The notes: generated by a model not told the origin, from the sequence alone. 10,810 bases of DNA from a virus (IMGVR_UViG_2531839446_000011:1-10810), one strand, 5' to 3'. Counted from the stretch's first letter, positions 2,949 through 4,212 are shown. A program made the numbers and translations.

Positions 2949-4030
2949 TGGGAAGACGAAGGAAAAATCCTGAACACGAAAAATTACCTCCAAATGTATA
3001 CCCAAATAAATATAGTTATGTATGGAAACCAACATCCAGAGAATCTGTAACACTAACCGCCATCAAGGATGGTTTAGCTGCTTTATGGAAAAAGTATGAG
3101 GAAACTGTAAGTAATCGCGATCGTGCAATGACATTCGGTCGCTTGTGGGAAAAATTCCTCGCCAGCGCCTATTACAGTGACCTCAGTCCAAGAACACAAA
3201 AAGATTATCTGCAACATCAAAAAAAGTTGCTTGCCGTATTCGGTAAGGTGCCGGCAGATTCCATAAAACCAGTACACATCCGTCGATACATGGACAAGAG
3301 AGGGGAGCAGAGTAAAACGCAAGCCAACCATGAAAAAAGCAGTATGTCCCGCGTTTACAGTTGGGGGTATGAGCGAGGGTACGTGAAGGGTAACCCATGT
3401 GCAGGTGTAAGTAAATTCAAGGCCAAAAACCGCGAACGATATGTAACCGACAAAGAATACCAGGCAGTATTAAGCGTTGCACCTCTTCCTGTTTTTATCG
3501 CAATGGAAATTGCCTATCTGTGTGCAGCGAGGGTTTCCGATGTGTTATCGCTGAAATGGGAGCAGATTGGAAACGACGGGATCTTTATCCAGCAAGGGAA
3601 AACAGGAAAAAAACAGATAAAAGCATGGAGTCCACGATTACAGGCGGCGATCGAAAAAGCAAAACAGTTACCAACATCCGCCTATGTAATCAGCAATCAA
3701 TACGGCAACCGATATATGTACAAAGGCTTTAACGAAATGTGGGTAGAAGCAAGAAATCGCGCAGGCAAAATTTCAGGTATTTTAACCGACTTCACCTTTC
3801 ATGATCTGAAGGCGAAAGGAATTTCAGACTATGAAGGAAGCAGTCGGGATAAGCAACTTTTCTCTGGTCACAAAACCGAGGGGCAAGTGCTAATCTATGA
3901 CAGGAAGGTTAAAGTTTCACCGACACTTGATGTCCCGTTACCTGAAAATATTCCAAGAAAATATTCCAAGAAAATATTCCAAGTAATTCCAAGTGTGATT
4001 TTTGTCACTGACTTAATGATGTATAAGTGA
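2948..4030 (+). CDS. int: lambda-family tyrosine integrase
   Basis: 360-aa ORF. N-terminus MGRRRKNPEHEKLPPNVY matches the lambda Int arm-binding N-terminus (MGRRRSHERRDLPPNLY). C-terminal catalytic region has HDLKAKG ... GHKTEGQVLIYDRK with the candidate catalytic Tyr. The last ~28 codons read through the arm-type tandem repeats. Confidence 0.9.
   Translation: MGRRRKNPEHEKLPPNVYPNKYSYVWKPTSRESVTLTAIKDGLAALWKKYEETVSNRDRAMTFGRLWEKFLASAYYSDLSPRTQKDYLQHQKKLLAVFGKVPADSIKPVHIRRYMDKRGEQSKTQANHEKSSMSRVYSWGYERGYVKGNPCAGVSKFKAKNRERYVTDKEYQAVLSVAPLPVFIAMEIAYLCAARVSDVLSLKWEQIGNDGIFIQQGKTGKKQIKAWSPRLQAAIEKAKQLPTSAYVISNQYGNRYMYKGFNEMWVEARNRAGKISGILTDFTFHDLKAKGISDYEGSSRDKQLFSGHKTEGQVLIYDRKVKVSPTLDVPLPENIPRKYSKKIFQVIPSVIFVTDLMMYK
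3945..3993 (+). repeat. tandem direct repeat, 13-bp unit AAAATATTCCAAG x3 plus a degenerate fourth copy; candidate Int arm-type binding sites (P' arm)
   Basis: Exact copies at 3945-3957, 3958-3970 and 3971-3983, then TAATTCCAAG at 3984-3993. Lies between the int catalytic region and the tRNA-derived core, like the P'1-P'3 sites of lambda attP. Confidence 0.6.
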
Positions 4031-4038
4031 TTGAATTT

Positions 4039-4100
4039 TGGCGGAGAGAGGGGGATTTGAACCCCCGGTGGAGTTGCCCCCACTCCGGTTTTCGAGACCG
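4039..4100 (-). other. partial tRNA-Ser(CGA) gene, 3' 62 nt only (anticodon stem/loop through CCA); attachment-site core
   Basis: Reverse complement reads CGGTCTCGAAAACCGGAGTGGGGGCAACTCCACCGGGGGTTCAAATCCCCCTCTCTCCGCCA: CUCGAAA anticodon loop, long variable arm, T-arm GGTTCAAATCC and CCA end, matching E. coli serU-type tRNA-Ser as I recall it. The 5' half is absent: no GGAGAGA acceptor strand on the - strand upstream, and identity breaks at 4101. Confidence 0.75.
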
Positions 4101-4117
4101 ATGATACCGAACCGTAA

Positions 4118-4130
4118 AATCAAAAGGTTA
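4118..4130 (+). promoter_or_regulatory. IHF consensus match (WATCAANNNNTTR) next to the att core
   Basis: aATCAAaaggTTA at 4118-4130, about 20 bp from the core and just before an arm-type repeat copy. Confidence 0.3.
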
Positions 4131-4138
4131 TAATTTTT

Positions 4139-4150
4139 CCTTGGAATAAA
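4139..4150 (-). repeat. inverted copy of the arm-type repeat (TATTCCAAG) on the far side of the core
   Basis: cttggaataaa on the + strand is the reverse complement of tttattccaag. Confidence 0.4.
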
Positions 4151-4199
4151 TGCCTTAAAAACATACACGAAAAATCAATATATTACGTGAAATTTAAGA

Positions 4200-4212
4200 A
4201 GAATATTCCAAG
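4200..4212 (+). repeat. direct copy of the arm-type repeat (AGAATATTCCAAG) on the far side of the core
   Basis: agaatattccaag at 4200-4212 differs from the 13-bp unit at one position. Confidence 0.45.

Follow-up and report, generated by a model that had tools for sequence, protein, structure and literature searches.

The attachment site (attP) of phage lambda combines a 15-bp core, annotated at 27724-27738 and located at gal-bio, with an Int-binding region annotated at 27814-27854 that lies inside the integrase gene itself (int, 27812-28882). A closer relative of the locus treated here is Sp14/CP-933U, the lambdoid prophage found at the tRNA-Ser gene serU of Escherichia coli O157:H7, which excises in circular form, as shown by detection of the attP junction with polymerase chain reaction (PCR) (PMC2669165). 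Tandem and nested prophages have also been documented, with prophage-in-prophage integration described by Nakamura et al. (2021; PMC8112680) and also in a study of O121:H19 (PMC8767318). Here we describe a stretch of 10,810 nt (the window, whose numbering is used for all positions) that is the entire contig ADUS01000071.1 of assembly GCA_000188875.2 from E. coli RN587/1, a typical enteropathogenic E. coli (EPEC; serotype O157:H8) whose genome was assembled with Celera from 454 Titanium reads (PMC3715677). Positions 3945-4213 of the window appear to form a genuine and ordinary lambda-type site of the Sp14/CP-933U-like lambdoid family that integrates in serU. Our best explanation, to which we assign a probability of about 0.72, is that this site is in attP configuration and that the junction it forms is the seam of a tandem or prophage-in-prophage cluster in RN587/1.

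Configuration of the attachment site

In order to decide which of the two sequences flanking the core is phage DNA, the window was compared with three other configurations of a serU site, using 5,426 complete E. coli genomes as the denominator for all complete-genome counts. The unoccupied site (attB) of K-12 reads yodB, intact serU, mtfA. The attL of lysogens, represented by D1, 98-3133, FORC64 and the SerU-LTIIb record (KU052038), consists of yodB-side host DNA, the core and then the right-hand sequence of the window, so that the right flank is phage DNA. For attR we used a chimeric query of 601 nt, in which the int end and core of the window were continued with K-12 sequence (serU 5' part, mtfA); int was joined through the core to intact serU and mtfA, at a coverage of at least 80%, in 1,144 of the 5,426 genomes, which identifies the left flank as phage DNA as well. 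This is the product that Int- and IHF-dependent recombination with attB would yield, and its occurrence is indirect evidence for such recombination. In O157:H7 this query matched at 99.3% identity over 601 nt, and from the integration site we take the O157:H7 matches to be Sp14. Since both flanks are phage arms, the window has the order P-core-P', with phage DNA on either side of a core that is common to attB and contains the crossover, and at the level of sequence we regard this attP arrangement as settled. An earlier note on this DNA, made from the sequence alone, had proposed the same arrangement as opposed to an ordinary attL or attR, and had allowed that the sequence to the right of 4100 might prove to be conserved host chromosome; K-12 has the 5' part of serU and mtfA at that place, and the window carries the distal arm of a phage. 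The orientations that the note gave were likewise confirmed, with the exonuclease, DUF4224 protein and int genes (plus strand) and the nleF, nleH, side tail fibre, lom and J genes (minus strand) converging on the site.

The window as a whole is present in no complete E. coli RefSeq genome, the best match having 64% coverage and 96.6% identity. An exact-pattern scan for the junction of int side, core and distal arm returned zero matches among the GTDB species-representative genomes and one contig in IMG/VR. The junction is also found in the IMG/VR contig L007, a second and independent assembly, which matches the window at 98.96% identity over 7,964 nt. Additionally, positions 3850-4100 are 100% identical in CP090611 and AVS0193, and positions 4023-10810 are 96.8% identical to a prophage of E. 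coli D1.

Strain D1 was considered as a simple single lysogen that would itself supply attR, and was rejected in this role; its serU prophage is rearranged with a second prophage, and attR was therefore obtained with the chimeric query. Within D1 (NZ_CP010134.1, 4.84-4.89 Mb) the serU-side prophage stands head to head with the late region of the second prophage, at a truncated major capsid gene, and the second prophage ends near ibsA/yegL. This order seems to indicate a chromosomal inversion via recombination between two lambdoid prophages.

tRNA-derived core and crossover segment

The core (4039-4100, minus strand) is, as the earlier note had recognized, a 62-nt 3' fragment of tRNA-Ser(CGA); it extends from the 5' side of the anticodon stem (CGGT) as far as CCA and is identical to K-12 serU at 60 of 62 positions. 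ARAGORN called no tRNA in the window, so the core is a fragment and not a gene, and in KU052038 these 62 nt, which adjoin yodB, bear the annotation of a pseudo tRNA-Ser. The two positions that differ from K-12 (A to G and T to C) are opposed in the variable-arm stem, where an A-T pair is replaced by a G-C pair, a compensatory change that retains pairing in the phage copy.

These two positions also locate the crossover. Among the att sites compared, the phage variants (G..C) are found in every int-side core and the host variants (A..T) in every core on the yodB side, a distribution which places the crossover between the variant positions and the distal arm. Judged from this pattern, strand exchange must occur within the 19 nt at 4082-4100, which form the anticodon stem-loop (loop at 4090-4096), with the exact cut sites inside that segment being putative. 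The element carries the gene from the anticodon stem to CCA, so that integration regenerates the tRNA gene, as in the anticodon-loop sublocation of tRNA-targeting elements, and ARAGORN continues to recognize the hybrid gene at attR as tRNA-Ser(CGA). Integration would thus swap the 3' 43 nt of serU for the phage copy, and because that copy carries the compensatory G-C pair the tRNA gene would stay intact.

Positions 4023-4038, the 16-18 nt past the tRNA CCA on the int side (AAAT-TCAATCACTTAT), resemble the sequence downstream of serU in K-12 (CTTTATCAATGACTTAT). This residual likeness suggests that the phage core may originally have been captured from the serU locus together with short downstream DNA.

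Arm-type and IHF-like sites

The int-proximal arm holds three exact tandem copies of a 13-nt repeat (AAAATATTCCAAG; 3945-3957, 3958-3970 and 3971-3983, plus strand), followed by a partial fourth copy (TAATTCCAAG, 3984-3993, plus strand) that is found in all int-side arms examined; these int-proximal repeats lie 100-145 nt from the crossover. The distal arm holds an inverted site (4140-4151, minus strand), which includes a copy with one mismatch (TTATTCCAAG, 4140-4149), and a direct site (AGAATATTCCAAGC, 4200-4213, plus strand), which includes an exact copy at 4203-4212. The arm-type consensus that we use, AATATTCCAAG, differs from the core and is a repeat shared by both arms, with three copies and a partial one int-proximal and one inverted and one direct copy distal. 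At one mismatch or fewer, ATATTCCAAG occurs five times in the whole window, every time inside 3948-4212, whereas 0.78 occurrences are expected from shuffles and none of 200 shuffles reached five. The three tandem copies of the earlier note were thus found at 3945-3983 and its inverted and direct copies at 4140-4149 and 4200-4212, while three features go beyond it, namely the partial fourth copy, a second match to the consensus of integration host factor (IHF) and an int gene that extends across the repeats.

With respect to IHF, the note had named one consensus match on the distal arm; a match is indeed present there, but the count is two, at 4118-4130 (AATCAAAAGGTTA) and 4173-4185 (AATCAATATATTA), both on the plus strand. 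No other match to the consensus WATCAANNNNTTR occurs in the 10.8-kb window, and mononucleotide shuffles of the AT-rich segment 3930-4230 gave a probability of 0.001 for two or more. Both sites, which are matches to a sequence consensus, lie on the distal arm and are conserved.

Alignment of seven diverged copies of the distal arm, drawn from different phage lineages, showed which parts of it are retained. Invariant in all seven are the core, the columns AAA.TCAA...TTA of the first IHF match, the block TTGGAATAAAT of the inverted site (4141-4151), the block GAAAAATCAAT at the second IHF match (4169-4179) and the direct site AGAATATTCCAAGC, and the similarity between lineages stops a few bases past this last site, which marks the outer limit of the conserved region. 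One of the seven, the distal arm at the left junction of 2013C-3264, is diverged across most of its length. Invariant blocks in otherwise diverged arms are the pattern expected of protein-binding sites, and together with the end of similarity they delimit a probable att region of about 3945-4213. The absence of the repeats from homologous att regions, which the earlier note had considered as a sign against the site, was not encountered; they are in every such region examined and are invariant where the arm has diverged. Promoter-like matches are at chance level, and a simple terminator scan of 3800-4850 found no intrinsic-terminator-like site, so that a sib-like element receives no support.

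Integrase and comparison with known systems

The integrase gene (2948-4030, plus strand) encodes a lambda-family tyrosine integrase of 360 aa (Pfam Phage_integrase, E 6e-11). Residues 1-313 align with residues 1-338 of lambda Int (phmmer, E 3.7e-12), and this alignment takes in residues 1-64 and the putative N-terminal arm-binding segment MGRRR..LPPN.Y; some homologues are labeled "Arm DNA-binding domain-containing" in RefSeq. The reading frame traverses all three repeats, so that its last ~26 codons lie in arm-type repeats, and stops 8 nt before the CCA end of the tRNA fragment. Upstream, at 2745-2948 (plus strand), is a gene for a 67-aa DUF4224 protein (Pfam DUF4224, E 1.7e-15; PHROG 1266 "excisionase", E 4e-21) whose stop overlaps the int start at 2948 and which, from its family annotation, is a likely excisionase. 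It is preceded at 215-2686 (plus strand) by the gene for an 823-aa exonuclease of the Qin/Sp14-type early-left operon (Pfam YdfE_N, YdfE_C and Rv2179c-like; PHROG 2082, full length).

The likeness to lambda attP is extensive. The integrases are homologous over their full length, the putative arm-binding N-terminus included; the window repeats overlap the 3' end of int, for which the Int-binding region inside lambda int offers a precedent; the distal arm alternates two arm-type sites with two IHF-consensus sites; and the two sites agree in gene order, with int-xis-exo on one side and tail fibre and accessory genes on the other, and in size (about 270 bp). The window differs from lambda in that its core comprises 62 nt of a tRNA gene instead of 15 bp, in that the tRNA 3' half lies between the crossover and the int-proximal arm sites, and in its arm consensus (AATATTCCAAG), with the distal sites in opposite orientations. 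Furthermore, its putative Xis is the DUF4224 protein, and its arm and IHF sites are predictions from sequence.

Sp14/CP-933U shares with the window an early region with the same ExoVIII-type exonuclease. In O157:H7 the int-proximal arm and core are 98.8-99.3% identical, the repeat is present in three copies, and the arm runs on through the core into serU and mtfA; lysogens thus have this integrase and its int-proximal arm joined to serU, as membership in the Sp14/CP-933U-like family entails. The difference is that the O157:H7 arm sits in an ordinary attR beside an intact tRNA gene, whereas the window arm is joined to the distal arm bearing YkgJ' (a truncated YkgJ-family gene), nleF and nleH. 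The SerU-LTIIb record (KU052038), for which limited searches gave no literature match under that name, shares the 62-nt core, and its distal arm, a homologue at 87.7% identity, includes the two arm-type sites as well as the two IHF-like blocks; in contrast to the window, it is an attL, with host yodB and the A..T variants, and its cargo is the LT-IIb toxin rather than nleF/nleH.

By analogy with lambda, Int would act as a heterobivalent tyrosine recombinase, its N-terminal domain on arm-type sites AATATTCCAAG (three and a half in tandem next to int, and two more on the distal arm in opposite orientations) and its core-binding and catalytic domains at the tRNA anticodon stem-loop. IHF would bend the distal arm at the two consensus sites, and the small DUF4224 protein encoded upstream of int would give directionality to excision. 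The positions of binding, bending and cleavage in this scheme are those predicted by homology.

Origin of the junction

An attP arrangement in a bacterial assembly can arise in several ways, and closed genomes that contain the junction allow these to be compared. Int, core and distal arm are contiguous in only 11 of the 5,426 complete genomes, six of which were examined (FORC64, 98-3133, DEC5B, 2013C-4991, STEC299 and 2013C-3264) and three resolved. In all six the junction is chromosomal, with an integrase and early region on one side and a tail or effector end on the other. FORC64 bears two decayed prophages in tandem at serU, in the order mtfA-serU-int1...nleH-nleF-YkgJ'-core-int2...NleG-core-yodB, and the genes at its middle junction are those of the window. 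Strain 98-3133 (O157:H16) has the two elements of FORC64 in the opposite order (yodB-core-YkgJ'-nleF...int-core-NleG phage), and in DEC5B, 2013C-4991 and STEC299 the early region of one phage body faces the late region of another.

In 2013C-3264 the junction lies elsewhere, between argW/intS and torI/dsdC. BLAST against phage ev099 showed an ev099-like prophage at argW that is split exactly at its own serU core by a serU-type phage, the resident prophage carrying yodB-side host DNA, the serU core and a distal arm. We considered, and set aside, the idea that homologous recombination had inserted a circular phage into the argW prophage; because the breakpoints fall exactly at the resident serU core, Int-mediated prophage-in-prophage integration appears to be the better reading. 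Phage ev099 itself holds, at 2434-3201, ~600 bp of host DNA downstream of yodB, then the 62-nt serU core in its host (A..T) form and a distal arm of the serU type. The phages mEp332 and PhiR70_1 carry such a segment as well, which lies 2.4 kb from the unrelated integrase gene of the phage itself. We interpret this yodB-core-distal arm segment as a fossil attL within these phages.

In all resolved cases, then, the sequences point to a junction that arose by Int-mediated integration beside a pre-existing distal arm, and the same origin is taken, by analogy, as the most likely one for RN587/1, with reasonable though not complete confidence. There, Int of a serU-specific phage would have used as its target a core to which the distal arm of a resident nleF/nleH prophage was already attached. 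Two of the contexts that the earlier note had offered for the arrangement are thereby documented in relatives of the window, tandem prophages at serU in FORC64 and 98-3133, and a prophage integrated elsewhere with an intact junction in 2013C-3264.

Several points weigh against this reading of the window. The window is a complete contig, and no further core, yodB or serU is visible in RN587/1, whose draft has many contigs ending in prophage repeats, as does ADUS01000071.1 itself. Look-ups with the exonuclease and integrase of the window retrieved this contig and no other. The Pfam domain Arm-DNA-bind_1 matches the integrase weakly (E 0.51, residues 1-20), the interval from the core to the int-proximal repeats holds no strict IHF-consensus match, and Int binding and recombination at the site are predicted from homology. 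Asadulghani et al. considered the Xis of Sp14 to be probably non-functional and detected little circular Sp14 (PMC2669165).

A contig that runs unbroken through int, core and distal arm would fit equally well a single phage genome that is unintegrated or circular, and the best-surviving alternative is accordingly that the site is the true attP of one excised, circular, replicating or otherwise unintegrated phage to which both sides belong. The junction is identical in sequence to an excision product, circular Sp14 yields a PCR-detectable attP junction after mitomycin C (PMC2669165), and the same two arms are joined at 99% identity in an independent assembly. The DNA of RN587/1 was prepared from an ordinary overnight culture (PMC3715677), however, in which circles should be a small minority, and every complete genome examined has the junction in the chromosome between two phage bodies. 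Fragmented J and tail-fibre frames and a truncated YkgJ gene also suggest a decaying prophage, though 454 homopolymer errors could break frames. We therefore consider a free phage a fairly unlikely source of the contig, albeit one that keeps appreciable weight next to the seam of two integrated prophages.

A mis-assembly in which the attR and attL of one lysogen were joined through the repeated core is very unlikely, even though any serU lysogen has a copy of the core at each end and the assembly is a draft with so many contigs broken in prophage repeats. If attL has the host A..T variants, as in all cases examined, only 19 nt distal to the variants are identical between attR and attL. Reads of 454 Titanium type should exceed the 62-nt core in length (the platform is known and the read length estimated), and the same junction recurs in an independent assembly and in closed genomes; it is on these grounds that a mis-join is judged unlikely. 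Scarcely credible at all is an ordinary attL or attR with the right flank (YkgJ pseudogene) as host DNA and the repeats as incidental AT-rich sequence, which an initial megablast match to "YkgJ family" DNA in strains without an adjacent int had made to look like conserved host and which the four-way comparison refuted, given that YkgJ'-nleF-nleH-tail is itself prophage in those strains, joined to yodB through the core, that K-12 has the serU 5' part and mtfA there, and that the repeats are above chance and conserved where their surroundings are not.

The seam of two prophages also agrees with the prophage clusters already documented (PMC8112680; PMC8767318), in which the int end of one phage abuts the effector or tail end of another and attB-like sequences of chromosomal origin lie beside exchangeable effector loci. 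Taken together, these two studies recognize serU as a prophage site in Shiga toxin-producing E. coli (STEC) and EPEC and a serU prophage as host to the attB of another phage, and FORC64, 98-3133 and 2013C-3264 are concrete examples with the core of the window; the difference is that the cluster structure of the window itself is deduced. As serU is absent from the main text of PMC8112680, the serU core of ev099-like phages may be an additional case of an attB within a prophage.

The kind of system is thus already known, being lambda-type biology at a known integration site, and our results are an incremental annotation, although limited literature searches suggest that the arm-site motif may be previously unrecorded. 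Beyond annotation the significance is small: the analysis yields a map of the att site in a widespread serU prophage family, with its crossover segment, its five arm-type and its two IHF-like sites. The attR of this family is in about a fifth of complete E. coli genomes. It also flags ADUS01000071.1 as a probable prophage-prophage seam, which is useful for genome closure and prophage delimitation, as tools that expect attL plus attR would merge or mis-split the two elements at such a seam. Seams of this type bring together and exchange effector loci, here nleF and nleH, a process already described for STEC and EPEC.

Repeat copy number

Variation in the number of 13-nt repeats is the sole mildly unexpected point. 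One copy is present at FORC64 int2, two in 689R5, STEC299, DEC5B, 2013C-3264 and 98-3133, three in the window, L007 and O157:H7, and four in Z1323HEC0355. Because 13 nt is not a multiple of three and the repeats lie inside the 3' end of int, each change in copy number rewrites the tail of Int, and the C-terminal tail after ...PLPENIP changes accordingly with one, two, three and four copies (345, 341, 360 and 358 aa, respectively). Three of the two-copy int genes examined were flagged as "frameshifted" by the Prokaryotic Genome Annotation Pipeline (PGAP). In lambda, the C-terminal tail of Int modulates catalysis. It is conceivable, although we consider it improbable and any regulatory role speculative, that the array is prone to slippage and that copy changes act as a heritable switch which tunes or locks the integration and excision of effector-carrying prophages. 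If this were true, a change in copy number would alter the number of arm sites and the Int tail together, which would explain the PGAP flags.

Genes of the distal arm

At 6439-10810 (minus strand) lies the end of the late region, with genes for a side tail fibre and Lom and with the portion of the J gene that encodes its C-terminus, as recognized from the Pfam families Phage_fiber_C, phage_tail_N, Ail_Lom, Phage_Tail_Tip and Ig_J. The J and tail fibre frames are broken into several open reading frames (ORFs), such as those at 8755-9585, 9702-10532 and 10535-end for J and at 6439-6708, 6710-6988 and 7671-8021 for the tail fibre; these breaks represent either real prophage decay or 454 homopolymer errors. 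Between the late genes and the site lie two type III secretion system (T3SS) effector genes on the minus strand, nleH (5449-6339; Pfam OspG_kinase) and nleF (4814-5383; Pfam NleF_casp_inhib), both supported by the RefSeq annotation of the homologous locus in D1, and together (4814-6339) they are an exchangeable effector locus at the tail end of the phage. An 89-aa ORF at 4502-4771 (minus strand), between nleF and the YkgJ remnant, matches PHROG 32532 (unknown function; E 1e-42) and has no Pfam match. The remnant itself, a truncated YkgJ-family cysteine-cluster gene at 4309-4422 (plus strand) that the annotations of D1 and FORC64 likewise record as partial, amounts to 37 codons. An intact counterpart of 110 aa stands at the same position in STEC299 (from marmot), which marks the remnant in the window as decayed phage cargo and not host DNA.

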